From assembly GCA_031367195.1 (NCBI GenBank), contig JANLPL010000250.1, positions 12,569 to 76,568 of the forward strand: 64,000 nt of DNA, written 5' to 3'. Below are positions 39,461 to 56,082 of this stretch, one piece after another. Made by a program: the position numbers and the translations under genes. The stretch comes from Bradyrhizobium sp. (lineage in GTDB: Bacteria > Pseudomonadota > Alphaproteobacteria > Rhizobiales > Beijerinckiaceae). The notes beneath the pieces are model-generated. The model had not been told where the DNA came from and ran no database searches. It was given only the letters and a program-made list of their open reading frames with translations. Positions within the stretch are counted from its first letter, which is position 1. Every line of letters begins with the position of its first letter.

Positions 39461-39559
39461 GTTGCGCTGCGGCGCCTCGGTGGCTGCCGTAAGGGAAATC
39501 TAAAGCCTAACGACCTATTCTGCCCCCGAGAGTTTTGGGTCATCGTGGGCGCCAGGCGT

Positions 39560-41806
39560 ATGGAGCGGTCAGTCAAAAAGGCCCTGTGGCTTAGCACCGG
39601 GTTCGTTTTTCTGGTTCTGGCGACCGAGCCCGTCGGCATTCGCTCGCAATTCGCCATCGGCGTCGCCGCGCTGATCGGCATGTCGGTCATTCGCGCCCTT
39701 GGACTGACGGGCGCCTGGCGCCAGATTTTTCTGGCCCTCGGCACGGCGGTCGTGATCCGTTATTTCTTCTGGCGCACGGTCAACACCATCCCGCCGATCA
39801 GCGACCTGTGGAATTTCATTCCCGGCGTGCTGCTTTACATGGCCGAACTGTACTCGACAGTCATGCTGGCGATCAGCCTGTTCGTGGTCGCCGACCCGCT
39901 CGACCGCAAGCCGCCCCGAACGCTGGCCCCGGAGGAGATGCCCACCGTCGACATCTTTATCCCTACCTATAACGAAGACCCTGAGTTGCTGGCGATGACG
40001 GTGATTGCCGCTGTCGACATGGACTATCCCAAGGACAAGATCACGGTCTGGCTGCTCGACGACGGCGGGTCGGACCAGAAATGCAACCAGGACAATCTCA
40101 AGAAGGCCAAGGAGGCGCAGGAGCGCCGCGTCGAATTGACCGCGCTCGCGGAGGAACTCGGCGCCAAATACCTGACCCGCGCCAAGAACGAACACGCCAA
40201 AGCCGGCAATATGAACAATTGCTTCAAGCAATCCGAGGGCGAACTGATCGCCGTGTTCGACGCCGACCACGTCCCGGTGCGCGAATTTCTACAGCAGACC
40301 GTGGGTTATTTTCGCGACGACCCGCGCCTGTTCTTGTGCCAAACGCCGCATTTCTTCACCAATCCCGACCCGCTCGAACGCAATCTGGAAACCTTCCAAC
40401 GCATGCCGTCGGAGAACGAGATGTTCTACGGCATCATCCAGAAGGGTCTCGACAAGTGGAACGGCGCCTTCTTCTGCGGCTCGGCGGCGGTGATCCGTCG
40501 TGAGGCGCTGCAACTCGTCGGCGGCTTTTCCGGCATCACCATCACCGAGGATTGCGAGACCGCGCTCGATCTGCATTCACGCGGCTGGCGCTCGATGTAT
40601 GTCGATAAGCCGATGATCTCCGGCCTGCAACCGGAGACGTTCTCGTCCTTCATTGGCCAGAGATCGCGCTGGGCGCGCGGCATGTTCCAGATTTTCCTCT
40701 TGAAGAACCCCGTGCTTAAGCGCGGCCTGACTTTGGCGCAGAAGATTTGTTATCTCTCCAATATCACTTATTGGTTTTTCTCGATCTTCCGCCTGCCTTT
40801 TCTCATTTCACCGCTGTTGTTCATTTACTTTAATATGCAAATCTACATCGCTAACGCCCAGGAATTTATATCTTATACTGTGTTATACATGGTGGCGAAC
40901 ATGATGATGCAGAACTATCTCTACGGCAAAGTACGCTGGGCATTGGTTTCGGAAGTCTATGAATTCATGCAGACGCTTTATCTCGCGCAAGGGTTGTTCA
41001 GCGTCGTCCTCAATCCCTACAAGCCCACATTCAACGTCACCGACAAGGGCAACAGTCTCGACAAGGATCATCTCTCGGAATTGTCCACGCCGTTCTTCGT
41101 CCTGTTCGGCGTTTACGCCGTCTCGATGATCGTGTGCACGTGGCGCTGGTTCACCGAGCGCGACGCCAACGAATTGCTGGGCGTCGTCGCGATGTGGAAC
41201 CTGTTCAATCTCCTGATGTCGTCGGCCGCGCTCGGCGTCATCGCCGAGCGCCGCGCCTTCCGCGCGCCGCTCGACCGGCCGGTCGATCTCGCCATCGGCA
41301 GCTCCCTCATCTCCGCCAAGGCGCTCGACGTTTCCTATGGCGGCTGCCGCGTCTGTGTACCGGCCGACCGGTTGCAACAACCGGTCGTGATCGGGGCGCC
41401 GGCGGTGGTGGACGTCAAGTTGCGGGTGGGCCACGGCGCGCAGAGTTTCCCGGTCGTCGTCAGCAACACGCTTTCGCGCGGCGATACGGTTGAGATCGGC
41501 TTCAGTTTCGGCAAGCTGAAGCGCCGCCACTATCAGGCGATTGGCGATTTGATGTTCGGCGACGCCAGGGAAATCGCGACGTTTCGTGAAAATCGCCGGC
41601 GACCCCGCGGCATCCTGCATGGCATGGGCACATTTTTCGCGTGGAGCTTCACCGGTCCGCCGCGGGCCTTTCGCCTCCTGTGGTGGGAATGGAAAGACCG
41701 CCGCGCCGCCCTCAAGGCGAGCGCGAGCGACTCGGGCGGGGGAACTGCGATCGCGACGCCTGTCGCCACGCTGGAACCAGCGCCGGCGCGCGCCGCCAGC
41801 GCCTGA
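39560..41806 (+). CDS. bcsA: Cellulose synthase catalytic subunit
   Basis: DDG, HAKAGN, FDADH, QTPH, TED, QRSRW; PilZ motifs RRAFR and DVSYGG. Confidence 0.96.
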   Translation: MERSVKKALWLSTGFVFLVLATEPVGIRSQFAIGVAALIGMSVIRALGLTGAWRQIFLALGTAVVIRYFFWRTVNTIPPISDLWNFIPGVLLYMAELYSTVMLAISLFVVADPLDRKPPRTLAPEEMPTVDIFIPTYNEDPELLAMTVIAAVDMDYPKDKITVWLLDDGGSDQKCNQDNLKKAKEAQERRVELTALAEELGAKYLTRAKNEHAKAGNMNNCFKQSEGELIAVFDADHVPVREFLQQTVGYFRDDPRLFLCQTPHFFTNPDPLERNLETFQRMPSENEMFYGIIQKGLDKWNGAFFCGSAAVIRREALQLVGGFSGITITEDCETALDLHSRGWRSMYVDKPMISGLQPETFSSFIGQRSRWARGMFQIFLLKNPVLKRGLTLAQKICYLSNITYWFFSIFRLPFLISPLLFIYFNMQIYIANAQEFISYTVLYMVANMMMQNYLYGKVRWALVSEVYEFMQTLYLAQGLFSVVLNPYKPTFNVTDKGNSLDKDHLSELSTPFFVLFGVYAVSMIVCTWRWFTERDANELLGVVAMWNLFNLLMSSAALGVIAERRAFRAPLDRPVDLAIGSSLISAKALDVSYGGCRVCVPADRLQQPVVIGAPAVVDVKLRVGHGAQSFPVVVSNTLSRGDTVEIGFSFGKLKRRHYQAIGDLMFGDAREIATFRENRRRPRGILHGMGTFFAWSFTGPPRAFRLLWWEWKDRRAALKASASDSGGGTAIATPVATLEPAPARAASA

Positions 41807-41817
41807 GGAGGTTCGCC

Positions 41818-44076
41818 ATGCGATTGCAATTCGTTGTCGCAACGCTTTTCGTTGTCCTTGCGCTGACGGGCCCGGCCGGCGCGAACGGCGCCGCCAATCC
41901 CGGCGGCGAAGCGTTGCATCGGTTTGGCCCCGACCCGCTGCAACTGCGTTTCGAGGGAGAGACCAGCTCAAAAAGCTGGCCGATCTACGTCACGTCAACC
42001 GAAGCCGGTACGCGCGCGCGCATCCATGTCGGTTTCACCAACGCCATCTCCGTCATGCCCGAGTCGTCGACGCTTTCGATCACTGTCAACGATGTCGCCG
42101 TGGCGCAGACGCCGATCGCGGCGGCGACCGATCCCGGAGCACTCGACGTCGAATTGCCGCGCGGTCTGCTGACGCAGGGGTTTAACAATATCCGGATCGC
42201 CGTCTCGCAACGCCATCGCGTCGATTGCTCGATGGAGGCGACCTACGAGCTCTGGACCCAGGTCGATCCCGCTTCCTCCGGCGTCGCTTTTCCGGGCGTG
42301 GCCGACCCGCGCATCGACAGGCTCGACGATCTCGCGGCGATCTCGCCCGACGCTTCCGGCGCGGTGACAATCCGCGTCGTGCTGCCCGAAGACCCCGATG
42401 CGGTCGCGGTCGATAGCGCGATGCGCGCCGTCGAAGCCGTGGCGATCCGCGCCAACATCCAGCGCCCCAGGGTAGAGGTGGTGAACGAAATCCAGGCGGG
42501 CGCGGGGCTCTACGTGCTGGCTGGACAGCGCGGTTACCTCACCTTGCATGGCTTAAGCGAATTCATCGGGCCGGGGCAGGGGCGCGCGCTCTCGGTGGAG
42601 GGGCAGGACGTGTCGGGCCGCGTGGTGGTGGTCGCGGTCGGCGACAGCCCGAAAGAGACGGCGGAGGCGATCGACGGCATTCTTCCCGTGCGCCATGCCG
42701 AGGAGCGCACCGAATCACCGGCGGCGGCGCGCGCGCTGGCCAACCAATTCGGCTATTCCGTAAGCGACCAACTGCATGTGCCGCTGCGCGACCTTGGCGC
42801 GCACACGGAGGAATTCAGCGGCAGGTTGTTTCGCGCCGCTTTCGACATCACTTTGCCGGGCGATTTCTACCCCGCCGACTATGACAAACTGACGCTTTCG
42901 CTCACCGCCGGTTACGCCAGCGGGCTTTCGTCGAATGCGCAAATTCTGGTGCGGGTCAACGACCGCGAAGCGGGCTCGATGCCGATGAAGAACCCGCGCG
43001 GCGATCTGTTCCGCGACCGGCCCGTGTCGGTGTCGCTGAGCGCAATGCGTCCTGGCGTCAATCATGTCGTAGTCGAGGCGCAGACGCCTGACGCCGGCGA
43101 TGCGACTTGCGAAGTCAAGCACCTGATGGATATGCGTAAGCGCTTCGTGTTCTTCGAACGCTCCGAGTTGATCGTTCCCGCCTTCGCCCACATCGGCCGC
43201 CTTCCCAATCTGGCGGCGACCTTTTCGAGCGGCTTTCCCTATGAGTCCGACGCGAGCCTGATCTTCGCGCCGAGCCGCGACCGGAGCACGCTATCGGCGG
43301 TCGCCAGCTATCTCGCGCGCACCGCGTCCGTTTCGGGCCGACTGATCGGCGCCCGCGTCACCTTCGATCGCGAGGCGGCAAAAAAGGGCTCGGTGTTGTT
43401 CATCGGTGCGCTCGACAACTTTCCACAGAGCCTGATCGAGCAGTTCGGCGTCGATTATGTCTCGCTGAAGAAATCCTGGTCGCGCGTCAACGGCGGCGAT
43501 TTCGGCGGCGCCGAGCCGGGCGGGACGGCCGCGCCGCAGAGCGTCGATTCGGGTCAGGTGTTCGATCAATGGGCGCAGGGCGGTCATGCCGCGCCCGAGG
43601 ATTTCTCGCCCCGGCTCACGCTGCGCGCCCTCTACGACCGTTACATCAACATCCATCGCGGCGATTTCGCGCTGCTGCGCGACCCTGAGAAGCTGATCGT
43701 GGCCCCGGAGCGGGCGACCATATTGCTCGCGCAGGCGCACGGTCCGCAGGGTTTCGACACCTGGACGCTGGTGGTCGGCGCAAGTCCGGGCTCGCTCGCC
43801 CGCGACATGACGAGCCTTGTAGCGCCGTCCAATTGGAACGAGGTCGAGGGTCGCGCTTCGGTCTTCACCCCGCGCAGCGGCGCCAAGACCATCGACCACG
43901 CGGTGCACACCTATTTCATCCCAACAGAGTCGTTGACTCCGGGCAATCTGCGATTGATCGCCGCCGGCTTCATGTCGGCCAATCTCGACTATTACGTGGC
44001 TATGGTGCTGGTCGCCGCCATATTGCTAGGTCTCGCCACGCGCGCCGTCGTAAAAGTGCATGGCAACCGGTCGTGA
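41818..44076 (+). CDS. bcsB: Cellulose synthase regulatory/periplasmic subunit
   Basis: Signal peptide, QRHRVDCSMEATYELWTQVD, LPNLAA...GFPY, C-terminal TM anchor; follows bcsA with GAGGAGG SD. Confidence 0.9.
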   Translation: MRLQFVVATLFVVLALTGPAGANGAANPGGEALHRFGPDPLQLRFEGETSSKSWPIYVTSTEAGTRARIHVGFTNAISVMPESSTLSITVNDVAVAQTPIAAATDPGALDVELPRGLLTQGFNNIRIAVSQRHRVDCSMEATYELWTQVDPASSGVAFPGVADPRIDRLDDLAAISPDASGAVTIRVVLPEDPDAVAVDSAMRAVEAVAIRANIQRPRVEVVNEIQAGAGLYVLAGQRGYLTLHGLSEFIGPGQGRALSVEGQDVSGRVVVVAVGDSPKETAEAIDGILPVRHAEERTESPAAARALANQFGYSVSDQLHVPLRDLGAHTEEFSGRLFRAAFDITLPGDFYPADYDKLTLSLTAGYASGLSSNAQILVRVNDREAGSMPMKNPRGDLFRDRPVSVSLSAMRPGVNHVVVEAQTPDAGDATCEVKHLMDMRKRFVFFERSELIVPAFAHIGRLPNLAATFSSGFPYESDASLIFAPSRDRSTLSAVASYLARTASVSGRLIGARVTFDREAAKKGSVLFIGALDNFPQSLIEQFGVDYVSLKKSWSRVNGGDFGGAEPGGTAAPQSVDSGQVFDQWAQGGHAAPEDFSPRLTLRALYDRYINIHRGDFALLRDPEKLIVAPERATILLAQAHGPQGFDTWTLVVGASPGSLARDMTSLVAPSNWNEVEGRASVFTPRSGAKTIDHAVHTYFIPTESLTPGNLRLIAAGFMSANLDYYVAMVLVAAILLGLATRAVVKVHGNRS

Positions 44077-45110
44077 GCGCGCGGCGCTGGTTGGTTGCGG
44101 CGATAGCCGCGCTGGCGCTTGGCGTGTCCATTGCGCCCGCGCGGGCCGAAGATTCGAACTGGGCGCTCTACAAGTCTCGTTTCATCGACGCCGACGGGCG
44201 TCTGTTCGACGATTCCGCCGACAATGTGAGCCATAGCGAGGGGCAGGGCTATGCGCTCGTGCTCGCCGCCTTCAACGACGACCACGACACCTTCGCCCGG
44301 CTGTGGAGTTGGACGCTGGCCAACCTTGAGATCCGCGGCGACCATCTCGCCGCCTGGCGCTGGCGGCCCGATGATCAACCGCACGCGCTCGACAAGAACA
44401 ACGCCACGGACGGCGACCTGCTGATCGCCTGGGGGCTGGCGGAGGCGGGGCGACGCTGGCGCATGCCCGGATATGGGGCGCAGGCCCGCCAGATCGCGTT
44501 GGCGCTCGGTCGAAAGGCTGTGTTTCCCTCGTCGTTCGGGCCAACCTTGCGTCCCGGCGCCGTCGGCTTCGGTTCTGACGACACAATTGACGGGCCGCTG
44601 GTCAATCTCTCCTACTGGGTTTTCCCGGCGATCGACGTGCTGGCCGAGATCGCGCCCGAGGTCGATTGGGCGGGGGTACGCGCCGGCGGCCTGGCGCTGT
44701 TCGACGCCGCGAAATTCGGGCCCGCGCATCTGCCGACAGACTGGCTTTCGCTGCGCGAGGGCGTGGCGCCGGCGAAGGACCGGACGCACGTGTTTGGCTA
44801 TGAGCTGGTGCGGGCGCCACTCTATCTCGCGTGGGGGCCGCCGGAGGCGAAGCCGCGCCTGGCGGCGCTGATGCGGAGTTGGCTCGATGCTTCCGCAGGT
44901 GAGCCGTCGCTGATTGACGTCAACACCGGCAAGCCGACGCAGAGTTTTTCGGATGAGGGCTATCTCGCAATAGCGGCGCTGGCCCGGTGCGCCGTTGAGG
45001 AAAAAAAATTTCCGGAGGAGTTACGGAAGATTCAGTTGAAGCGTTACTACCCTGCCACGCTTCATATGCTTTCATTAACCGTGCTGCGGCTACGGTATCC
45101 GCGATGTTAA
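44073..45110 (+). CDS. bcsZ: GH8 endoglucanase
   Basis: SHSEGQGYA, NNATDGDLLIAW, NLSYW, YELVRAPLYL; signal peptide; GTG start overlaps bcsB stop. Confidence 0.93.
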   Translation: MSARRWLVAAIAALALGVSIAPARAEDSNWALYKSRFIDADGRLFDDSADNVSHSEGQGYALVLAAFNDDHDTFARLWSWTLANLEIRGDHLAAWRWRPDDQPHALDKNNATDGDLLIAWGLAEAGRRWRMPGYGAQARQIALALGRKAVFPSSFGPTLRPGAVGFGSDDTIDGPLVNLSYWVFPAIDVLAEIAPEVDWAGVRAGGLALFDAAKFGPAHLPTDWLSLREGVAPAKDRTHVFGYELVRAPLYLAWGPPEAKPRLAALMRSWLDASAGEPSLIDVNTGKPTQSFSDEGYLAIAALARCAVEEKKFPEELRKIQLKRYYPATLHMLSLTVLRLRYPRC

Positions 45111-48100
45111 AGTGGCGTCTCGTATTTGCGTGCATGTTGGCGGCGTCGCTTGGCGCGGCCCCCGCGCGTGCGCAAAAACCAAGCGCTGCGGCCGAACCCG
45201 CGGTCGTCGAATTCGTCGCCAAGGGGGACGCGGGACTGTTGCCGACGCCGGGCCCCAATGGTGGGCCGCCGGTCGATGCTCCCTATCCGCATATCTATCA
45301 GGCCCCGCTGTTCGGCACGCTGTTCGCGGTCTCCTCCAGCGAAGCGGCGGTGGACGAGAGCGCTCTGCGCTACTACGCCTCGCTGCACAATTTCGTCCGC
45401 GCCAACGCCGAGATCAAACGGTTGAAGTCGCTGCATCCGAACTGGACGCCGCCGACCAACATCTATTCGACTGCCGGCGCCGGCGCGGATGAGCAGCCGT
45501 TCTGGGATTTGCTCGCCGCCGACCGGTTCGAGGAATTGCGCGCCGGCATCGCGCTGAAGGAGCGCTCGAAGCCCGGCTGGAAACCCTCGCGCGATCTCCT
45601 CACCAAGATCGCCCGCAAGTCGGACATCGAGACGCTGGTCAGGAACTCCAACGAGAAGAAGCCGGCCGAGGCGCTCGCCGTCGCCGACGGCGACCCGTCC
45701 ATTCTGCATTGTGCTTATATGGACGCCAACTGGCGCGTCGCCGACGCCTTCCTTGACGTCGGCCTGCCCAAGCGCGCCTTCGAGATCTACCACGCCATCA
45801 TCGCCACCTGTCCCGATCACGATGAGCGGCTGACGACGGTTCGCAAGGCCATCTCGCGTTTCAGCTTCGCCCAAACCGCCTCGCTGATCGCGATGGGCGC
45901 CAAATCCGCCGATGGGGCGACCGAATTCGACGCCGCCAAAATCGATCTTACGCGCGCGCGGATCGCCGCCGTCAACCAGGGCGAGAGCAAGGAGGCCATC
46001 GGCCCGGAGGCGCTCGCCGATTTCTTCGCCGAAGCGTCGCGCACCAAGGTGCGCGCCGATCTCGGACTGGCCGGATGGTTCGAATATAACCGCGACCAAT
46101 TCGACAAAGCCGAGCATTGGTTTTCGCTTGTCTCGCTGGGCAGACCGGCGGGCGCGGATGCGACTGCCGTCAATCTGGCGGAAGGGCGCGCATTGTCGCT
46201 CCTGAAGCTCGGCCGTGTCGAAGACGCGCTCAATCTGTCCTATATTTGGCGCAACGTTTCCAAGACGATGCGCGAAACCTACATCGGGGCCAGCGCCTCC
46301 TTGCTGACGCGCGCCTCGCCGCCGCCCGACGTGTCGGAAAAAGCGCTGGCGGACTTTGTCGCCATTGTCGAGACCGATCGCAGCACTGTCGGCGCGCAGG
46401 CGATCGGCTGGTATCGCTACAACAGCGGCGAGTGGGACGACGCCGCATTGTGGTTCAAGTCCACACTTGTTTGGACGGGCGTGGACGACGCCGCCGGCCC
46501 CAGGGACCGCCAAGTCGATGCGGAAGTCGCAAGCCTGATCGAGGGTTACGGCCGCGCGCTCGCGCACGCCCATCGGATGGACGAGGCGACCCGGCTCGCC
46601 GACCGCTGGCGCGTCGGCGGCGCGGCGCTGGAGACGGTATTCGTCAATCTGATGAGCGGCGCCATCGAGGCCGCGCCCTCCGTCGGCGTGCTGTCGCCCG
46701 ATCAACTCGCCGATTTCGCCGACATCGCGCGCGCTCGACAGTTGGTCGCCGGGGCCGCTTCGCTCGGCTGGCTCCACTATCGTTCGAGCGATTACGCCAA
46801 CGCGATCGTCTGGTTCCGCGATGCGATCGGCTGGAGCCAGCAGGGACGCGGCGATCTAGGGTCCAATCAGGGGCTCGCGCTTTCGCTCAAACAGACCGGC
46901 CAATTCGCCGAAGCCGAAGAGGTCGCCTGGACCTTCGCCAAAGACTCCGCCGATATGCGGGCGATCTACGTCTCCGCCGTCGTCGCTCAACTCTCCCCCG
47001 ACAAGGCGGCCTTGTCGGGCGGACGGCTCAATCGCTTCATAGGTCTTGTCGGCGCGGACCGCTCCTCCGTCGGCGCGCAGGCGCTCGGTTGGTATCGGCT
47101 TAAAGCGGGCAATTGCGCCTATGCCGCGCCATGGTTCCGCAAGGCTACCGCCTGGAGCGCCGCCGGTGCCGAGGACGCCGACACCGCACGCGGTCTCGCT
47201 TTGTCCTTGAAGTCGGTCGGCGACTTCGCGCTGGCCGAAGACCTCGCATACGCCTGGCGCGACCGCGATCCCGAATTGCGTAAGCTCTACGTCGCCATCG
47301 GCGTGGAAGAACTGACGAGCGAGGCGCCAGTAATTGCGGTTAGCGAAGCGCGCGTGCGCAGGCTGTCCGAGCAGGTATTGTCCGATCACAATCTGGCCGG
47401 CGCACGGGCGATTGGTTGGTGGCGCTACCGGCAGGCCGCCTGCGGCTTTGGCGGGCAATGGTTGCGGCTGGCGATCGATTGGAACGACGCGGACAAGCGC
47501 GACGCCAAGACCGACGAGGGCTTTGGCCTGACGCTTCGCGCGACAGGTCGACTGACCCAGGCGGCGCGCCTCGCGCGACCTTGGGCCGACAGCGTCCCCC
47601 TGATGAAGAAGCTCTATATCGACGTGATGGTCGAAGAGCTTTCGCGCGACAACCCGCCGGAGCCGATCGACGAAGCCCGATTGAAGGATTTCGTCGGCGT
47701 GATCGAGCCGATCAAGTCGCCGCTCGGCGCGCAGGCGCTTGGCTGGTACCGCCTTGAGCGCAACGAACTCGATGAGGCCGCGCGCTGGTTCAAAAACGCC
47801 ATCGACTGGTGGCCGCCGCAGCGGCTCGATCTGTCGAAGCGCCTGTCGGCGCCGGTTGACGACTACCAGCCGATCCTCGCCAAGCTCGCGCTCGACATCG
47901 AGGACTATCGCCGCACGCCGCGCGCCTATCCCAATTCCTCGTCGTTGATCGGCAAGAGCACGGAATCCTACGTCAACACAGAGGAGGGCTTCGCCAAGAC
48001 CCAGGAAGGCTATGCGCAGACGCTTCGCGCGCTCGGCCGCGTCGAGGAGGCCGAGGCCATCGCCTGGGCCTGGCGCGACCGCTGGCCGTCGCTGCGCCAG

Positions 48101-51100
48101 CTCTATGTCTATATCGCCGCCGATGAACTCGCGCGCGCGGACGGGCCGGAGATTTCGCCCGAGCGGCTGCGCCGCTACGCCGCCGCGATCGAGGACGCGC
48201 GCTCGGCGCCCGCAGCCGCGGCGATGGCGTGGCGTCTGCTCCGCGCGAAATCGGCCGAGCCGGCGGCGCAATGGTTCGAAAAGGCGCTGGCCTGGGCGCC
48301 GTCGGAACCGCCCGACGCGGGGTTGGTCGAGGGCTATGTCGCCGCCCTGCAAGGCGCCAGGAAATTCGCGGAAGCCGACAAGTTCGCTGCGCGCTGGCGC
48401 GGCGTTTCGCCGCGTTTCGACCTGATCTATCTCAAGAGCGAGTTGGCGAGCCTTCGCGCTTCCGGCGGCGCCGACGCCGCGAGCGCGGCCAAATACGCCG
48501 ATATCGAAAGCGAGATCGACAAATCCCGCTCGGGCGAGGGCGCGTTGTCGCTCGGCTGGCTCGCCTATGAAACGAAGGATTACGAGCGCGCGCTGACCTG
48601 GTTTCGCCATGCGGTGGAATGGGGCGGCGACGCTTCCAAATCAAGGGAAGGCGTCGCGTTGTCGCTGCGCGCGCTCGAACGTTTCGCTGATCTCGCCGAA
48701 TTCGGCTATGCCGAGCGCGGCGTCTCGACCGCGATCCGCGACGTCTATTACGGCGGCATGATCGCCTGGCTGACCGCCGACAAGCCGCTGCGCGACGTCG
48801 CGCCGGAGGCTCGGGCGCATTTCGAACAGGCCGTGCTCGCCGATAAGAGCGTGGCTGCCGCCCAAGCGCTCGGCTGGGGCGCGGCGATGCGCGGCGAATG
48901 GCCGGCGTCGCGCCGCTGGTTCGACAACGCCGTCGCCTGGAGCGGGTTCGATCCGCTGGCCGTTCCCGTGAAGCCCGACGCGGACCGCGTCAAGCTGGTC
49001 GAGGGTTTGGTTCAGGCGTTGCGCGGGGCGGGAGACGCGGCCCGCGCCGAAAACGTCGCCTTTGTCTGGCGTGACGAAAGCCCGGCGCTCGCGGGCCTCT
49101 ACTTGCAAATCTTCACGCAAGCCCTCGCCGAGGACGCAACCCCGCTGGCGCCGCAACGGCTCGCCCGCTTCGCCGCCTACGCGCAAAGCCAGCGTTCGTC
49201 CGAGGCGGCGGGCGCGCTGGGATGGCGGTTCTATCGCGCCAAGGCGCCGCACGACGCGATTGGTTGGTTTGAGCGCGCGCTCGTCTGGGCGCCCGAGGGG
49301 CCGCCGCCGGCCAAACTCGCCGAAGGCTATGCGCTGTCGCTGCGCGCCGCGGGGCGGCTTCTCGACACCGAGAATTTCGCTTACGGGCTCGTCGCCGACC
49401 CCGACATGCGCGCGGCCTATATCTCCGTCGTGGTCGCCGAACTCGCCGAAGACAAGGCCGATCTGGCGCCCGCGCGGCTCGACCGCTTCGTCGCCGTGGT
49501 CGCCGACGCCCGCTCCGCGATCGGCGCGCAGGCGCTGGGCTGGCGCCGGCTCAACCAGGACAATTGCGTCTATGCCGCGCCCTGGTTCCGCAAGGCGCGC
49601 GCCTGGAGCAGCGACGCCACGGAGGAGGCGCAGACCACGCGCGGTCTCGCGCTCGCGTTGCGCAAGGTCGGCGCCTTCGCCCAGGCCGAGGATCTTGCCT
49701 ATGGCTGGGGTGACCGCAATCCCGAGATGCGGAGCCTGTTCGTCGACATCGGTATCGAGGAACTGACCAGCGAAGCGCCGGTGATCGCGATGAGCGAGCC
49801 GCGTGTGCGCCGCCTGTCGGAACGGGTGTTGTCGGAGCGCCATGTCAAGGGCGCGCGGGCGCTGGCCTGGTGGCGCTACCGGCAGGCGGGCTGCGGCTAT
49901 GGCGGCGATTGGTTCCGGCTCGCCACCGGCTGGAACGAGGATGACAAGCGCGACGCCAAGACCGACGAGGGTTTTGGCCTGACCCTGCGCGCGTCCGGCC
50001 GGCTCGCGCGCGCGGAGGCGCTCGCCTATCCCTGGATCGACGCCGTTCCGCTGATGAAGAAGCTCTATATCGACGTGTTGGTCGAGGAGCTTTCGCGCGA
50101 CAATCCGCCGGAGCCGGTCGATGAGGCGCGGCTGAAAGCCTTCGTCGCCACGATCGAGCCGATCAAGTCGCCGCTCGGCGCGCAGGCTTTGGGCTGGTAC
50201 CGCCTTGAGCGCGGCGAACTCGACGAAGCCGCGCGCTGGTTCAAAAACGCTATCGACTGGTGGCCGCCGCAAAAACCCGATCACTCCAGGCGACTGTCGG
50301 CGCCGGTCGACGATTACAAGCCGATCCTGGCCCGGCTCGCGCTGGAGCATAACGACTACCGCCGCACGCCGCGCGCCTATCCGAATTCCTCCTCGCTGAT
50401 CGGCAAGAGCACGGAAGACTACGTCAACACCGAGCAAGGCTTCGCCAAGACTCAGGAAGGCTACGTGCAGACGCTTCGCGCGCTCGGGCGCGTCGAAGAG
50501 GCCGAGGCGATCGCCTTCGCCTGGCGCGACCGCTCGCCGTCGTTGCGCGCGCTCTATCTCGATATGGCCGCCACCGAACTGGATCGACGCGACGGGCCGG
50601 CGCTCGCGCCCGAGCGTTTGCAGCGCTTCCTTGAGGCGATCGAGGCCGATCAATCCCCCGCCGGCGCCGCCGCGATGGCGTGGCGGCAATTTCGGCTCAA
50701 CGCGTTTGAGAACGCCAGCGATTGGTTCCAGAAGGCGCTCGCGTGGTCGAAGGGCGCGGCGCCGCCGCCCAGTCTCGTCGCGGGATATGTGATGGCGTTG
50801 CAGGGCGCGAAGAAGTTCGAGGCGGCCAAATCGGTAGCGGAGAAATGGCGCGGCGCCTCTGTCGAGCTTAATCTCGTCTATGTCCAGAGCGAACTGCAAT
50901 GGCTGCGCGCCACCGGCAAGGCGGACAATGTCACCGCCGCCCAATTCGCCGAGATCGAAAAGACCATGAACGGCGCGAAGTCGGCGGACGGCGCGTTGTC
51001 GCTCGCCTGGATCGCCTATGACGTGCACGACTACGCACACGCGCTGCTTTGGTTCCGCAACGCCGCGCTTTGGGGCGCCGACACGGTCGAGCCCAAGGCG

Positions 51101-54100
51101 AAGGAGGGCATAGCGCTCTCTCTGCGCGGGCTCGAAAAGTTCGAGGAATTGGCGGCTTTCGGCTATGCCGAGCGCGCCGTTTCGCCCGCCTTGCACGACG
51201 CCTATTTCGGCGGAATGGTCGTTTGGCTCACCTCCGACAAGCCTTTGCGCGAGGTGAAGCCCGAGGCGCGCGCGCAGTTCGAGCAGGCGGTCGGCGGAGA
51301 AAGCAGCGTCGTCGGCGCGCAGGCGCTCGCCTGGGGCTCGCTGATGCGCAACGACTGGGGTCAGGCGCGCAAATGGTTCGAGACCGCCATCGACTGGAGC
51401 GGCTTCGACGCGCTGGCGCCGCAGGGACCGCAGGACGCCGACCATTCCAAGCTGGTTGAGGGCTATGTACAGGCCTTGCGCGCCAGCGGCGAACTCGGCC
51501 GCGCCGAGGACGTCGCCTATATCTGGCGCGACGAGAGTCTGACGCTCGGCGGCCTTTACCTCGAAATTTTCACGCAGGAACTCTCGGCTGACAAAGCCGA
51601 TCTCACCGACGAGCGGATCGCGCGCTTCGCCGCCGTCGCGGAAGCGCGCCGCTCGCCGCCGGCCGCCGGCGCGCTGGGCTGGCGCGCCTATCGCGGCAAG
51701 ACGTTCGCGGACGCGATAAGCTGGTTCGAGAAGGCGATTCACTGGTCGCCGAGCGGCAAAGGCGACGCCAAACTCGACGAGGGTTACGCGCTGTCGCTGC
51801 GCGCGAGCGGCCGGTTGGTCGAGGCGGAGGATTTCGCCTGGGATCACCGGGCCGAATCGCGCGAAATTCGCACCGCCTATGTCGCCGCCTTCTCCGATCA
51901 ATTGCTCGATCCAAAACTGTCGCCGAAATTGTCGGCGCTGCGGCTCGCCCGTTTCGGGCAGATCGTGACGTCGGACAAAATTTCCACCGGCGCCTCCGCA
52001 CTCGGCTGGCGGCGCATCCAGGACGGCAATTGCGGCTATTCGCTCGGCTGGTTCCGTAAGGCGATCGCGTGGTCGGAGGGCGGGCGCGGCGACGACAAGC
52101 TCTATTCCGGTTTCGCGCAAGGGTTGCGCGCGGTCGGCATGTTCAACGAAGCCGAGGACGCCGCCTTCACCTGGGCCGATCGTTCGGCCGAGGCGCACGA
52201 ACTCTACATCAACATCGTCATCGAGGAATTGACCCGGCAATGGCCGCGCGTGCCGATGAATGAGACGCGCACCGCCCGTTTCGCCGGCCTCGTGCAGGCC
52301 GATCGTTCGACGCCCGGTGCGCAGGCGCTCGGCTGGCGGCGTTACATGCAGGCCGGCTGCGGCTATGGCGGGCGCTGGTTCGAACTCGCGGCGAACTGGG
52401 CTCCCGACCGGCGCGGCGACGCCCATCTCAACGAAGGCTATGCGCTGACCCTGCGCGCGACCGGACGCCTCACGCGCGCCGAATCCATCGCCTATCCCTG
52501 GATCGAGCGCGCCCCGGCGATGAAGAAGCTTTATATCGACGTCGCCGTCGAGGAATTGTCGCGCGACAATCCGCCCGAGCCGATCCCGGAGACGCGCGTG
52601 GCCGCGTTCGAGACCGTCTTCGCCTCTATCCATTCCGCGCTCGGTGCGCAGGCGCTGGGCTGGTACCGTTTCGCGCGCCACGAGAACGAGGGCGCGGCGC
52701 ACTGGTTCCAGCTTGCGCTCGACTGGTGGCCCTCGCTGCCGCCCGACGCCAACCAGAAGCTCGCGACGCCGGTCGACGACTACAAGCCGATCCTGGCCCA
52801 GCTCGCGCTGCGCCCCGAGGATTACCGCCGCACGCCGCGAGCCTATCCCAATTCCTCGCTGCTGATCGGTCACAGCCTGGAATCCTACGTCAACACCGAG
52901 GCCGGCCTCGCCAAGACGGTCGAGGGCTACGTGCGGGCGCTGTTCGCGCTGTCGCGTTACGATCAGGCCGAGGCGCTCGCACTTCGCTGGGCGGACCGCT
53001 GGCCGCCTCTGCGCGGCCTGCTGATCGACATGGCGGCCGCCCAACTCGGCGCGCCCGACGCCGACCGGATCCAGCCCGATCGCCTGGCCCGCTTCGCCAA
53101 GCTGATCGAAGACGGCCACTCGCCGACCGGCGCCGAGGCGCTCGGTTGGCGCGCCTACAAGGCGAAAGACTATGTCGCCTCCGCGCGCTGGTTCCGCTCC
53201 GCCGTCGATTGGCGGCCGGCGGACGGCAAGATGAGCTTCGAAGTCGTGCGTGGCCTTGCCGATTCGCTTGGCAATCTGAAGCAATATGACGAGGCGCTGA
53301 ACGTGGTTTCGACCTGGCGCGCGCGGATGCCGGAACTCGACGACGTCGGTGTCGAAATCGGGCTCGACAGCGTGAAGGCGCTCGATCCAACTTCCCCGAC
53401 CGCGATTGCGCGGATTCAGGAGATCGCCGCCAACGTCAGCAAGACCCATTCCACCAGCGGCGCGCTGTCGCTGGGATGGCTCGCCTATGGCCGCAAGGAA
53501 CATCCCGGCGCCGAAGCCTGGTTCCGCAAAGCGATCGAATGGACGCCCACCGGCGGCGATCCCGATCCCAAGGCGCTTGAAGGCTACGCCCGCGCCTTGC
53601 AGGGCGAGCAGCGGTTTGACGATTTCATGCGCTTCACCGGCGAATGGAGCGAGCGCAGCGCCACGCTCAAACCGCTGTATCTCGAAGCGGCGGCGCAGAC
53701 GCTCGCGGTCGCCGCCGCCAATGGCGAAGACGTTCCCACCGATACGCTGGCGCGCGCCGGCAAGGCTTTCGCCGAGGCGCGCTCCTTCGCGGGCGCGCAG
53801 GCGCTCGCCTGGCAGCGCATTTCCCGCAAGGACTGGATCGCCGCCGCCGCCTGGTTCCAGGCGGCGCGCAATTGGTCGAAGGCTTCCGAGGAAGACCCCA
53901 AGACGACGGAAGGCCTAATCATCGCGCTGCGCAGCCTAAAGCGCGACGACGAGGCCGAGGCGCTCGCTTATCGCGGGGCAAGCCACGACGAAGTCCTGCG
54001 CGGGCTTTATCTCGAAATCGTCGCCGACCGGCTGACCCGCAGCCCTCCCTCGCCGCCCGATGAGAATGGCATGCGTCGCTATGCCGAGACCGCCATCGCG

Positions 54101-54871
54101 GCAAAGTCCGGCAATGGCGCGCAGGCGCTTGGTTGGTACTCCTACAACGCCCGGCAATATTCCGCCGCTGTAGCGTGGTTCGAGAAGGCGATTTCGTTCG
54201 AGCCGACCGAGAACGCCGCGCTCGGCCTCGCCTTCGCCTATCGCAAGATCGGCGACCGAGCGAATTACGCACGCGTCATACAAGCCTATCGCGAAACCTA
54301 CGCCAAGATCGCCGAACTCGGCGGCCGGCGCGGTTCGACGCGCGAACGCCGCGCGGCGTTCGAGAGCGACGTGGCGCCGATCAAGCGTTTCCGCGCCACG
54401 CTGTCCGAATATCCCGCTCGGCGCGTGACGTCGCAGGGCGCGGGCGCCGGCGGGGGGAGCGCGCTCGGCTGGCGGCTCCTCAACCAAAGCCGGCCGATCG
54501 AGGCAGCGCAAGCGTTCGAGTCGGCGCTCCAGACGACGACCGGGCGGGCGCGCCAGGACGCGGCTTACGGGCGCTCGCTGGCGTTGCTGGCGGCCGGCGA
54601 CACCGGCGCGGCGGGGCGCTCGGCCGCCTCCATCGACCTCAATAAGCAACAACGCAACGAGGTCGGCGTGCAACTGCTCGCCCGCCGCGCCTGGGACGCC
54701 TACAACGCCGACCGCTACGCCGAGGCGCTGCATTGGCTCGACCGCCGCGCCGCTTTCGCGCCAGAGACCCGCGATCTCATTCAGATGCGCGCGTGGTGCC
54801 TGCAACGGCTCGGACGGACCGAACAGTCGAGCGCAATTCAGTCGCAGCTCGACCAACAATTGTCGCCGTAA
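45104..54871 (+). CDS. Giant secreted TPR-like protein of cellulose operon (BcsC/CelG-like, 3255 aa)
   Basis: Signal peptide; about 25 ALGW..WF..A..W helical modules; located between bcsZ and bcsN; no beta-barrel-like C-terminus seen. Confidence 0.88.
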   Translation: MLKWRLVFACMLAASLGAAPARAQKPSAAAEPAVVEFVAKGDAGLLPTPGPNGGPPVDAPYPHIYQAPLFGTLFAVSSSEAAVDESALRYYASLHNFVRANAEIKRLKSLHPNWTPPTNIYSTAGAGADEQPFWDLLAADRFEELRAGIALKERSKPGWKPSRDLLTKIARKSDIETLVRNSNEKKPAEALAVADGDPSILHCAYMDANWRVADAFLDVGLPKRAFEIYHAIIATCPDHDERLTTVRKAISRFSFAQTASLIAMGAKSADGATEFDAAKIDLTRARIAAVNQGESKEAIGPEALADFFAEASRTKVRADLGLAGWFEYNRDQFDKAEHWFSLVSLGRPAGADATAVNLAEGRALSLLKLGRVEDALNLSYIWRNVSKTMRETYIGASASLLTRASPPPDVSEKALADFVAIVETDRSTVGAQAIGWYRYNSGEWDDAALWFKSTLVWTGVDDAAGPRDRQVDAEVASLIEGYGRALAHAHRMDEATRLADRWRVGGAALETVFVNLMSGAIEAAPSVGVLSPDQLADFADIARARQLVAGAASLGWLHYRSSDYANAIVWFRDAIGWSQQGRGDLGSNQGLALSLKQTGQFAEAEEVAWTFAKDSADMRAIYVSAVVAQLSPDKAALSGGRLNRFIGLVGADRSSVGAQALGWYRLKAGNCAYAAPWFRKATAWSAAGAEDADTARGLALSLKSVGDFALAEDLAYAWRDRDPELRKLYVAIGVEELTSEAPVIAVSEARVRRLSEQVLSDHNLAGARAIGWWRYRQAACGFGGQWLRLAIDWNDADKRDAKTDEGFGLTLRATGRLTQAARLARPWADSVPLMKKLYIDVMVEELSRDNPPEPIDEARLKDFVGVIEPIKSPLGAQALGWYRLERNELDEAARWFKNAIDWWPPQRLDLSKRLSAPVDDYQPILAKLALDIEDYRRTPRAYPNSSSLIGKSTESYVNTEEGFAKTQEGYAQTLRALGRVEEAEAIAWAWRDRWPSLRQLYVYIAADELARADGPEISPERLRRYAAAIEDARSAPAAAAMAWRLLRAKSAEPAAQWFEKALAWAPSEPPDAGLVEGYVAALQGARKFAEADKFAARWRGVSPRFDLIYLKSELASLRASGGADAASAAKYADIESEIDKSRSGEGALSLGWLAYETKDYERALTWFRHAVEWGGDASKSREGVALSLRALERFADLAEFGYAERGVSTAIRDVYYGGMIAWLTADKPLRDVAPEARAHFEQAVLADKSVAAAQALGWGAAMRGEWPASRRWFDNAVAWSGFDPLAVPVKPDADRVKLVEGLVQALRGAGDAARAENVAFVWRDESPALAGLYLQIFTQALAEDATPLAPQRLARFAAYAQSQRSSEAAGALGWRFYRAKAPHDAIGWFERALVWAPEGPPPAKLAEGYALSLRAAGRLLDTENFAYGLVADPDMRAAYISVVVAELAEDKADLAPARLDRFVAVVADARSAIGAQALGWRRLNQDNCVYAAPWFRKARAWSSDATEEAQTTRGLALALRKVGAFAQAEDLAYGWGDRNPEMRSLFVDIGIEELTSEAPVIAMSEPRVRRLSERVLSERHVKGARALAWWRYRQAGCGYGGDWFRLATGWNEDDKRDAKTDEGFGLTLRASGRLARAEALAYPWIDAVPLMKKLYIDVLVEELSRDNPPEPVDEARLKAFVATIEPIKSPLGAQALGWYRLERGELDEAARWFKNAIDWWPPQKPDHSRRLSAPVDDYKPILARLALEHNDYRRTPRAYPNSSSLIGKSTEDYVNTEQGFAKTQEGYVQTLRALGRVEEAEAIAFAWRDRSPSLRALYLDMAATELDRRDGPALAPERLQRFLEAIEADQSPAGAAAMAWRQFRLNAFENASDWFQKALAWSKGAAPPPSLVAGYVMALQGAKKFEAAKSVAEKWRGASVELNLVYVQSELQWLRATGKADNVTAAQFAEIEKTMNGAKSADGALSLAWIAYDVHDYAHALLWFRNAALWGADTVEPKAKEGIALSLRGLEKFEELAAFGYAERAVSPALHDAYFGGMVVWLTSDKPLREVKPEARAQFEQAVGGESSVVGAQALAWGSLMRNDWGQARKWFETAIDWSGFDALAPQGPQDADHSKLVEGYVQALRASGELGRAEDVAYIWRDESLTLGGLYLEIFTQELSADKADLTDERIARFAAVAEARRSPPAAGALGWRAYRGKTFADAISWFEKAIHWSPSGKGDAKLDEGYALSLRASGRLVEAEDFAWDHRAESREIRTAYVAAFSDQLLDPKLSPKLSALRLARFGQIVTSDKISTGASALGWRRIQDGNCGYSLGWFRKAIAWSEGGRGDDKLYSGFAQGLRAVGMFNEAEDAAFTWADRSAEAHELYINIVIEELTRQWPRVPMNETRTARFAGLVQADRSTPGAQALGWRRYMQAGCGYGGRWFELAANWAPDRRGDAHLNEGYALTLRATGRLTRAESIAYPWIERAPAMKKLYIDVAVEELSRDNPPEPIPETRVAAFETVFASIHSALGAQALGWYRFARHENEGAAHWFQLALDWWPSLPPDANQKLATPVDDYKPILAQLALRPEDYRRTPRAYPNSSLLIGHSLESYVNTEAGLAKTVEGYVRALFALSRYDQAEALALRWADRWPPLRGLLIDMAAAQLGAPDADRIQPDRLARFAKLIEDGHSPTGAEALGWRAYKAKDYVASARWFRSAVDWRPADGKMSFEVVRGLADSLGNLKQYDEALNVVSTWRARMPELDDVGVEIGLDSVKALDPTSPTAIARIQEIAANVSKTHSTSGALSLGWLAYGRKEHPGAEAWFRKAIEWTPTGGDPDPKALEGYARALQGEQRFDDFMRFTGEWSERSATLKPLYLEAAAQTLAVAAANGEDVPTDTLARAGKAFAEARSFAGAQALAWQRISRKDWIAAAAWFQAARNWSKASEEDPKTTEGLIIALRSLKRDDEAEALAYRGASHDEVLRGLYLEIVADRLTRSPPSPPDENGMRRYAETAIAAKSGNGAQALGWYSYNARQYSAAVAWFEKAISFEPTENAALGLAFAYRKIGDRANYARVIQAYRETYAKIAELGGRRGSTRERRAAFESDVAPIKRFRATLSEYPARRVTSQGAGAGGGSALGWRLLNQSRPIEAAQAFESALQTTTGRARQDAAYGRSLALLAAGDTGAAGRSAASIDLNKQQRNEVGVQLLARRAWDAYNADRYAEALHWLDRRAAFAPETRDLIQMRAWCLQRLGRTEQSSAIQSQLDQQLSP
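46300..53660 (+). repeat. Three tandem intragenic repeats of ~2.45 kb (817 and 822 aa spacing), boundaries approximate
   Basis: RRTPRAYPNSS starts at 47909, 50360, 52826; C..Y..WF and CG[FY]GG motifs recur with the same period. Confidence 0.92.
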
Positions 54872-54978
54872 GGGAATCGTCAACCAAAACGCAAGCATTG
54901 TTTGCTAACCATAGGGAAGCTTGGCGGCGGGTTCGGCCTGACGACAAGGCAATGTTCGGCGTTTGTCGGGTGCGTGAA

Positions 54979-56082
54979 ATGCGGATGGAAGTTTCTGCCT
55001 GTTGGCGGGGGCGCAACGGCGCGTCGCGGCGCGCCCTGGCCTTTCTGTTCATCGCCGGACTCGCCGGTTGTTCGGCCGCCCCGAACGAAACGCGCGCGGG
55101 CTACGAAGCTGTCTCGGAAATCACTCCGGCGACTGATGGCCGAACTCCGATGGCGGAACTGCCGGTCGCTGCCGGCGCGGTGGTCGCCCTCCTGCAAAGT
55201 CAGGTGCGCGGAATCCTCACCCAACGCATCGTGTTGCGCGGCGACCCCGGCACGCTGGGCGAAAACGCCATCGTCGTCAAAGTCGATCAATCGCGAGGGC
55301 CCTCGGATCTCGGCCGAGTCGGCACGCCGACCAAGGCGATGATCGCAAAGGAGCTCGACGAGAATTTCGCCGGCGTCGATATGCAGCTTTCGCAGACTTT
55401 CGCGCGCAACGGTTTTGGGCCGTTCGGCTATGCGATCGGTCATCCGCGCGAGAGCGTGACCTGCATCTACGCTTGGCAATGGAGCCTGTGGAAGACGCCG
55501 CGCATCGGCGAGGCGCCGACCGGGGCGCCTTCATTGCCGGTGCAGCCGACCTCGGTGCGCGTCCGGCTCTGCCGCTCTTCCCTTGGCGAGGCCGAAATTC
55601 TGCCGCTGCTGCGCGACATGCAGGTTTACCCGCAGGATTCGCGCGTCGCCTATCTCGATCCGAACTCAACGGGCGCGGAGACAGGCGGCGACGCGCTCGC
55701 GGCGGCGGGCGTCGGCTATTTCGTCGTGCCGGGGGCCACCCCCCGGTTCGCCACGACGCGCGAGCGATTGGCCGCGCCGCACCGACACGCCCACCGCAAA
55801 GTCGTCAGGCGCGTTCGCCATCGCGTGCGCGAAGCGGCGCGCGAGGAGCGCGCGGTCGCGTTCGATCCGCCGTCGCGCGACTCGGTCGCGGTGCCGATGC
55901 CAGCGGGCGGCGCCGCGCCGACGACAGCCTCTATGGCCGCCAATCCGCTGCTGGCGCCGCTCGCGGCCGCTTCGGCGCCGCGCGCGCGCAGCGACGATAT
56001 GCCGTTGCCGCGCCGCGCCGCCGCAACGGACCAGCCTTCCTCGCCCGCGCCGCGCTCCGCTTCGATCCCGCTGCCCAATTGA
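54979..56082 (+). CDS. bcsN: Cellulose biosynthesis lipoprotein BcsN
   Basis: Lipobox LAGC; QRIVLRG..GENAI, NGFGPFGYA, CIYAWQ, SVRVRLC; Pro/Ala-rich tail. Confidence 0.82.
   Translation: MRMEVSACWRGRNGASRRALAFLFIAGLAGCSAAPNETRAGYEAVSEITPATDGRTPMAELPVAAGAVVALLQSQVRGILTQRIVLRGDPGTLGENAIVVKVDQSRGPSDLGRVGTPTKAMIAKELDENFAGVDMQLSQTFARNGFGPFGYAIGHPRESVTCIYAWQWSLWKTPRIGEAPTGAPSLPVQPTSVRVRLCRSSLGEAEILPLLRDMQVYPQDSRVAYLDPNSTGAETGGDALAAAGVGYFVVPGATPRFATTRERLAAPHRHAHRKVVRRVRHRVREAAREERAVAFDPPSRDSVAVPMPAGGAAPTTASMAANPLLAPLAAASAPRARSDDMPLPRRAAATDQPSSPAPRSASIPLPN

Follow-up and report, generated by a model that had tools for sequence, protein, structure and literature searches.

The 64,000-nucleotide (nt) stretch of DNA analysed here (the window) comes from Bradyrhizobium sp. 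(Beijerinckiaceae in GTDB; GCA_031367195.1, contig JANLPL010000250.1, positions 12,569-76,568) and carries, within a cellulose synthesis (bcs) operon, a gene for an exported protein of 3255 amino acids (aa) built from tetratricopeptide repeat (TPR)-like modules. Taken as a whole, the observations are very probably best explained if this giant protein is the largest known form of BcsK, grown by tandem duplication and serving as the periplasmic scaffold of the type III (bcsABZ-K-N) cellulose systems of Hyphomicrobiales. Of the core components of type III cellulose secretion, BcsK is the one least understood; what the TPR subunit does has been called "largely speculative", and these systems have no known exit through the outer membrane (PMC8892547). 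No description of such giant BcsK proteins was found in the searchable literature, and in databases they appear without a name, as "hypothetical" or "TPR" proteins. The elongation described below, which came about in steps and more than once and has been maintained by selection, is a useful natural experiment; a new mechanism is not demonstrated by it.

An earlier reading of the DNA, made without database searches (the sequence-only reading), had described a secreted TPR-like protein of 3255 aa and linked it to cellulose, and this description is borne out by the open frame, the signal peptide, the TPR matches in Pfam and the bcs neighbours, which place the gene in a cellulose synthase operon (Table 1). 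The open reading frame (ORF) 45104-54871 (+) is a single frame open over 3255 codons. Its GC content at codon positions 1/2/3 is 68/52/83%, which is the signature of a coding frame in a 65% GC genome (438 contigs, 4.84 Mb, 100% complete). A Pfam scan of the translation returned TPR_8 and TPR_2 above the cut-off, with TPR_1, TPR_11 and TPR_P4H as sub-threshold matches.

The same reading had counted about 25 modules, 21 of them grouped as three 7-module units with anchor motifs spaced by 2451 and 2466 nt, and had proposed a dot plot and a unit alignment as a check. Both the count and the spacing were confirmed. A module hidden Markov model (HMM) counted 25 modules of ~109 aa over aa 324-3191, and the xLGW anchors (aa 433, 553, 660, 769, 878, 1040, 1149, 1255, 1371, 1477 ... 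3120) display the spacing pattern 109-109-162-109-106-116-106 three times, once per unit, corresponding to a unit period of 817/822 aa or 2451/2466 nt. Because whole-protein self-BLAST gave the identity match alone, 400-aa pieces were compared with a masked copy of the protein. This comparison yielded a dominant diagonal with an offset of 817-822 aa extending from ~aa 400 to ~2860, along which unit 2 is 48-74% identical to unit 1 and 49-55% identical to unit 3. A repeat search at the DNA level found blocks of 283-300 nt with start-to-start spacings of exactly 2451 and 2466 nt, which are 84-86% and 72-76% identical to the middle copy; one block family (47847/50298/52764) includes the previously noticed anchors at 47909, 50360 and 52826. 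Over whole units, u1 and u2 are 64.5% identical in protein and 72% in DNA, and either of them is 43% (protein) and 55-57% (DNA) identical to u3. Tandem Repeats Finder reported no repeat, the period being above its 500-nt limit.

Each module consists of six helices arranged as three TPR-like hairpins, the first a canonical TPR (GAQALGWyr...WF..A..W) followed by two further helical hairpins. Modelling of the units had likewise been suggested by the sequence-only reading, and the AlphaFold2 (AF2) model of unit 2 (m7ffe87f6eeed) is entirely helical with six helices per module at a predicted local distance difference test (pLDDT) score of 83.5. A fold search of the unit with Foldseek gave generic long TPR scaffolds as the best matches, at template modelling (TM) scores of ~0.2-0.3, among them Ctr9, Ski3, IFT-A, SPY/OGT and a Campylobacter periplasmic flagellar scaffold; a profile of the unit searched by sequence against solved structures matched designed or consensus TPRs alone. 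In each unit one module is longer, at 162 aa, owing to an insert of 50-60 aa with the motif APVDDYxPILAxLAL..DYRRTPRAYPNSS..YVNT, and no other part of the unit is as well conserved as the block bearing this insert, in which u1 and u2 share 86% of their aa.

In type III operons a barrel-less TPR protein, BcsK, replaces BcsC (PMC8892547, PMC11470070). The definition of BcsK goes back to Romling & Galperin 2015 (through PMC8892547), and bcsK is the name of the gene in the same operon position in Shinella (PMC9012009) and Starkeya (PMC6559018). The window has the order bcsA-bcsB-bcsZ-giant gene-bcsN, and the giant gene encodes a TPR-rich exported protein without a C-terminal porin domain. Its N-terminal domain (N-domain) and C-terminal tail (C-tail) are homologous to the same-position genes of Shinella, Rhizobium and Microvirga (matched by genus and position, not by published accession); for Starkeya N1B the closest listed relative is a Microvirga protein. 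A scan with an N-domain profile, covering one genome per species, found 556 relatives, and 80 loci were fetched. Most of these loci show the A-B-Z-K order where the contig reaches the neighbours, usually with bcsN nearby, and Shinella, Rhizobium, Microvirga, Bosea and Methylobacterium are represented among the syntenic loci. In two separate alignments, the proteins of Rhizobium and Shinella cover aa 75-592 and aa 2925-3238 of the giant. The giant thus has both canonical ends and is an internal expansion, with ~23 additional modules placed between those ends. Its operon position, the homology of its end domains and the lack of a porin assign the giant to the BcsK family.

Within this family it is an unusual variant and not a typical member. 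Like the canonical BcsK of Shinella zoogloeoides, Starkeya sp. N1B, Rhizobium and Methylobacterium, it follows bcsZ, has bcsN nearby, carries a signal peptide, is composed of the same type of module and lacks a porin; the N-domains are 35-40% identical, and the C-tail matches the final ~110 aa of the orthologues from Rhizobium and Shinella at 42-45% identity. However, it has 25 modules instead of 2 (a factor of ~12) and 3255 aa instead of ~580-750, is organised in three 7-module super-repeats, and contains in one module per unit the conserved insert that the canonical proteins lack.

The sequence-only reading had likened the protein to the BcsC/CelG type, normally far shorter. The difference in length stood, in that canonical relatives have 2 modules and about 580-750 aa, so that most homologues do not share the length of the giant, whereas the family had to be corrected from BcsC to BcsK. 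BcsC of E. coli or Komagataeibacter is, like the giant, a periplasmic protein rich in TPRs that belongs to a BcsAB cellulose system, but it joins its TPR domain to a 16-stranded outer-membrane barrel. The barrel family PF05420 (BCSC_C) is absent from the giant protein and, in a six-frame search that detected the E. coli control, from the whole genome, and the two proteins share no sequence homology past generic TPR. E. coli BcsC has ~1157 aa, making the giant ~3 times longer. A BcsC identity was consequently rejected. The PEP-CTERM TPR protein PrsT was rejected as well, since TIGR02917, the sole NCBIfam match, covers one TPR and scored 20.4 bits where 312 are required. More distant likenesses are AlgK, PelB and PgaA, periplasmic helical-repeat scaffolds of synthase-dependent exopolysaccharide systems to which the docking of partner enzymes and the guidance of the polymer are ascribed (PMC8892547), and BcsK has been likened to AlgK (PMC9012009). 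AlgK, however, is a lipoprotein with ~10 repeats and a separate porin partner, whereas the giant has no lipobox and ~8 times the repeat number.

The relatives form a size series (Table 2). The comparison of homologue lengths proposed by the sequence-only reading separated proteins with one, two and three units at about 1860, 2440-2510 and 3220-3310 aa, and the long module is present in 0, 1, 2 or 3 copies across the family. The one- and two-unit proteins of Methylocapsa-, Methylovirgula- and Lichenihabitans-like metagenome-assembled genomes (MAGs) resemble the giant in N-domain, modules, insert-bearing long module, C-tail and operon, and have two units or one unit fewer, respectively. Expanded BcsK proteins are restricted to MAGs labelled Roseiarcus, Methylocapsa, Methylovirgula, Lichenihabitans or Beijerinckiaceae. 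No BcsK with four or more units was found among the 150 best matches listed from 1.84 billion representatives, the longest of which has 3221 aa; the longest ORF at any locus, of 3310 aa, still has three units.

Table 2. Forms of BcsK arranged by number of modules
Form	Modules	Length	Occurrence
Canonical BcsK	2 (rarely 3)	about 580-750 aa	Rhizobium, Shinella, Methylobacterium, Bosea
Expanded, one long module	9-10	1551-1927 aa	Lichenihabitans-like MAGs
Expanded, 492-aa block duplicated	13	about 2050 aa	Methylovirgula-like MAGs
Expanded, two ~828-aa units	17-18	2443-2514 aa	Methylocapsa-like and other MAGs
Expanded, 334- or 435-aa blocks, no insert	13-22	1912-2901 aa	other Beijerinckiaceae MAGs
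Expanded, three units	24-25	3216-3310 aa	the window's clade

The order of the duplications was reconstructed from a maximum-likelihood tree of 600-aa unit windows, with six species sampled in the window's clade. One-unit proteins fall outside the unit clades. The second unit of two-unit proteins groups with the third unit of three-unit proteins (98), and the first unit of two-unit proteins with units 1 and 2 of three-unit proteins (99). Within the window's clade, u1 and u2 are sisters (100) and each holds all six species (100 and 99), indicating that the third unit is a re-duplicated first unit that predates the species split. In the N-domain tree the three-unit clade (15 rows, 99) is nested in the two-unit clade (27 rows, 99). 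The trees thus show a history of nested tandem duplication from one to two to three units, the last two steps each copying a 7-module block of ~820 aa. The step from one to two units is placed in an ancestor shared with Methylocapsa-like relatives, and the step from two to three, in which the first unit was copied, in the ancestor from which the window's Roseiarcus-like clade descends.

A second three-unit protein (P0017), 55% identical to the giant, is placed apart among the two-unit proteins and has its own u1 and u2 as sisters. The hypothesis that the middle unit originated only once in P0017 and the window's clade was rejected by the approximately unbiased (AU) test (p = 5e-15), with the caveats that the group was named after the tree had been seen and that gene conversion may have acted within P0017. 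On the evidence of the trees, the third unit arose twice independently, and growth to 13-25 modules took place in at least four lineages. The sequence-only reading had suggested that unit number varies by recombination. Relatives do differ by tandem duplication, but the number is not fast-varying, as exactly three units are present in each of the 13 distinct proteins in the window's clade (65-95% identity), with no copy lost and the units orthologous across species.

Blocks of other lengths have been amplified in sister lineages: 435-aa blocks (4 modules) in P0030, P0036, P0039 and P0040 and 334-aa blocks (3 modules) in P0031, P0041 and L017, in both cases without the insert, and 492-aa blocks (4 modules) in P0032, L010 and L011. 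Copies within these amplifications are up to 78% identical, so that some of them are younger than the amplification in the window.

In comparison with the nearest orthologue (L001), the ratio of nonsynonymous to synonymous substitution rates (dN/dS) is 0.147 for the N-domain, 0.147 for u1, 0.151 for u2 and 0.168 for u3, and in more distant pairs it is uniform at 0.24-0.35. Purifying selection is equally strong on the N-domain and on each of the three units. The uniformly low dN/dS, together with the absence of copy loss, argues against the idea that a TPR array prone to repeat growth has amplified in a neutral, runaway fashion, leaving only the canonical BcsK parts (N-domain, last modules and C-tail) to do the work, although it does not reveal the purpose of the length. 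What recommends that idea is that TPR arrays readily amplify, that different blocks (334, 435, 492 and 828 aa) were amplified in several lineages, pointing to a high duplication propensity, and that a 2-module canonical BcsK is evidently enough in most Hyphomicrobiales, including three species of the window's genus. Nevertheless, units as constrained as the N-domain (~0.15), a copy number fixed at three with zero losses in 13 proteins diverged to 65% identity, 9.7-kb ORFs that are intact in short-read assemblies, and the growth of the array in at least four lineages make a neutral origin unlikely. If the extra length were neutral all the same, the giant would be a striking yet ordinary case of TPR repeat amplification.

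The N-domain is not repeated within the giant and is conserved in all relatives at 35-95% identity. Profile searches by sequence found no Pfam family, no NCBIfam family and no PDB relative for it. Its AF2 model is all-helical (pLDDT 84, predicted TM score (pTM) 0.70); a fold search returned nothing at E <= 0.001, the best, weak match being a TPR fragment of BcsC (5xw7; E 0.013, TM 0.33). In the homologues the signal peptides are likewise of the AxA type and no Cys is conserved in them, which indicates that these proteins are not lipoproteins. Eight of the nine Cys residues after the signal peptide form four spaced pairs. One is the invariant pair 203/236 of the N-domain; the others (671/780, 1488/1597 and 2310/2419) are 109 aa apart, at equivalent positions of modules 1 and 2 of each unit, and these positions are kept in 18/19 and 16/19 aligned units.

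By analogy with other synthase-dependent TPR scaffolds (PMC8892547), BcsK would act as a periplasmic scaffold beside BcsB, BcsZ and the lipoprotein BcsN. The giant form could guide or hold the nascent glucan and dock partner proteins, and the one conserved 50-60-aa loop per unit could be a binding site, so that a protein would have 1, 2 or 3 of them. A TPR superhelix has about 8 repeats per ~7-nm turn. With ~80 hairpins the giant would extend over some 60-80 nm, which is 2-3 times the width of a Gram-negative periplasm, whereas a canonical BcsK would reach ~15 nm. A length several times the periplasm width favours a protein that may lie along the envelope as a multi-site platform instead of crossing the periplasm once. 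The sequence-only reading had considered an elongated scaffold that might bridge an unusually wide envelope, act as a molecular ruler or array several synthase complexes, ideas that are conjectural. The insert, conserved in sequence and modelled at a pLDDT of ~30, has the pattern expected of a segment that may fold only on a partner.

Several points weigh against this scaffold interpretation. Membership in the family is founded on synteny, shared end domains and gene names from the literature, there being no curated BcsK model in Pfam or NCBIfam, and the sole grounds for the periplasmic location are the signal peptide and the Cys pairs. The length argument uses textbook TPR geometry and not model coordinates, and the pTM of 0.49 for the unit 2 model makes its inter-module geometry unreliable. 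The pLDDT of ~30 at insert residues 1725-1774 of that model, despite the sequence conservation, lends no support to a binding loop. Finally, in Agrobacterium a mutation of celG, the fourth gene of celABCG, raises cellulose production (PMC4018554, PMC4646962). If celG, which has the same operon position, corresponds to bcsK, BcsK would modulate or organise secretion, and a simple role of being needed for export would be wrong.

The length far above the periplasm width, as estimated above, leads to the question whether the giant leaves the periplasm and acts at the surface or in the matrix as a Trp-rich protein that binds cellulose, bundles fibres or serves as an adhesin. Trp makes up 3.5% of the residues, with several conserved Trp per module, and the outer-membrane crossing of BcsK systems is unexplained (PMC8892547). 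The conserved Trp residues, however, occupy TPR packing positions, and both ends of the protein are homologous to periplasmic BcsK. Beyond the Sec peptide no recognisable secretion signal is present, nor is there an autotransporter or BcsC barrel or a PEP-CTERM-type family above threshold (TIGR02917, 20 bits against 312), so that a surface function appears very improbable. The chance that the three units are an assembly artefact, a repeat mis-joined or duplicated in a metagenome bin, is negligible: mis-assembly classically comes from repeats and the host assembly consists of 438 contigs, but assemblers would not confuse units that are 55-72% identical in DNA (84-86% in the best 300-nt blocks), a divergence already held against duplication by the sequence-only reading, the frame is open and under purifying selection along its full length, and 12 other independent assemblies from several projects contain the gene with three orthologous units in identical order (13 distinct proteins in the clade, the window's included), which together exclude mis-assembly for practical purposes.

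For the periplasmic scaffold, the orthologues with 2, ~10, ~18 and ~25 modules are ready-made length variants with which its role can be probed. The series was built by datable duplications with every copy under purifying selection, and the parts worth mutating are the N-domain with its invariant Cys pair and the once-per-unit insert. The repeated independent elongation in related bacteria of acid soils, lichens and glacier streams suggests that length itself is selected. A bolder proposal, which we consider improbable as it stands, is that barrel-less cellulose secretion is tuned adaptively, step by step, through the length of BcsK, and that each unit is one docking station whose flexible loop captures one partner. 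If this were true, the periplasmic crown of BcsB, BcsZ, BcsN or an outer-membrane exit would be candidate partners of the loops. One, two or three units would then gang one, two or three synthase/exit sites and thereby set the number of glucan chains per fibril, as a bacterial protein-ruler counterpart of linear terminal-complex arrays, and the growth in at least four lineages would be the outcome of selection, in biofilms of peat, lichens and cold streams, for cellulose that is thicker or stronger.

Table 1. Coordinates of the giant gene, its parts and the neighbouring bcs genes in the window
Feature	Position	Strand	Remarks
bcsA, cellulose synthase catalytic subunit with PilZ	39545..41806	+	ORF limits, start unrefined
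bcsB	41641..44076	+	ORF limits; PF03170 BcsB, 159 bits
bcsZ, glycoside hydrolase family 8 (GH8) periplasmic endoglucanase	43833..45110	+	PF01270, 161 bits; NF008305 BcsZ
Giant bcsK-type gene	45104..54871	+	3255 aa; only TPR families match in Pfam
Sec-type signal peptide	45104..45172	+	aa 1-23, MLKWRLVFACMLAASLGAAPARA followed by QK; read from the translation
BcsK-specific N-terminal domain	45266..46063	+	aa 55-320; invariant Cys203/Cys236
Array of 25 modules, ~109 aa each	46073..54676	+	aa 324-3191; from module alignment, HMM and AF2 secondary structure
Super-repeat unit 1	47060..49510	+	aa 653-1469; 7 modules, arbitrary phase
Long-module non-TPR insert, unit 1	47816..47998	+	aa 905-965; conserved
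Super-repeat unit 2	49511..51976	+	aa 1470-2291; sister copy of unit 1
Long-module insert, unit 2	50267..50449	+	aa 1722-1782
Super-repeat unit 3	51977..54442	+	aa 2292-3113; orthologous to unit 2 of two-unit relatives
Long-module insert, unit 3	52733..52915	+	aa 2544-2604
C-terminal tail	54470..54817	+	aa 3123-3238; homologous to the canonical BcsK C-terminus
bcsN, probable lipoprotein	54952..56082	+	proposed start ATG 54952; PF17038, 102.6 bits

Among the neighbouring genes, bcsA matched TIGR03030 with 862 bits (cut-off 699) as well as PF13632, PF03552 and the PilZ family PF07238, and the real start of bcsB is probably downstream of the bcsA stop. The start codon of the giant gene overlaps the stop codon of bcsZ (ATGTTAA at 45104-45110), and this overlap suggests translational coupling of the BcsZ endoglucanase and the BcsK scaffold. 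Read from ATG 54952, the N-terminus of BcsN runs ...RRALAFLFIAGLAG followed by CSAA, with an LAGC lipobox at aa 37-40, then the PF17038 domain and a Pro/Ala/Arg-rich tail. BcsN is hence a probable lipoprotein, and its tail is probably disordered. The length of BcsN does not co-vary with that of BcsK, being ~330-395 aa in canonical and giant operons alike. Operons with bcsK have bcsA, bcsB and bcsZ, often also bcsN, and are without bcsD, bcsE and bcsG. No further bcs gene lies between bcsA, bcsB, bcsZ and bcsN at the locus; no genome-wide search was made for bcsD, bcsE or bcsG. An antisense ORF of 1620 codons inside the giant gene (48641-53503, -) was rejected as a gene, since its GC content (84% at its own position 1 and 69% at position 3) mirrors that of the sense frame, as in a shadow frame.

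In the window's genus, BcsK is present in 6 of 37 species genomes and was found in none of the other 31. Three of the six have giants (the window's own, the intact G032 and the frameshifted long-read G011) and three have canonical forms (G020:C6, G022:C6 and G031:C12; loci L083-L085) that are ~32% identical to the giant. This distribution indicates that the operon is accessory and that the canonical and giant forms are distinct lineages; the bcs operon is probably exchanged horizontally. Broken giant bcsK genes, consisting of several ORFs, occur at L002, L008 (the locus of G011) and L021, all in MFD-series MAGs and all with the full 9.8-kb span present. As G011 is a long-read assembly, these breaks are probably homopolymer or frameshift errors and not signs of pseudogenes; bcsN is still found ~9.8 kb downstream of the gene's start at L002 and L008.

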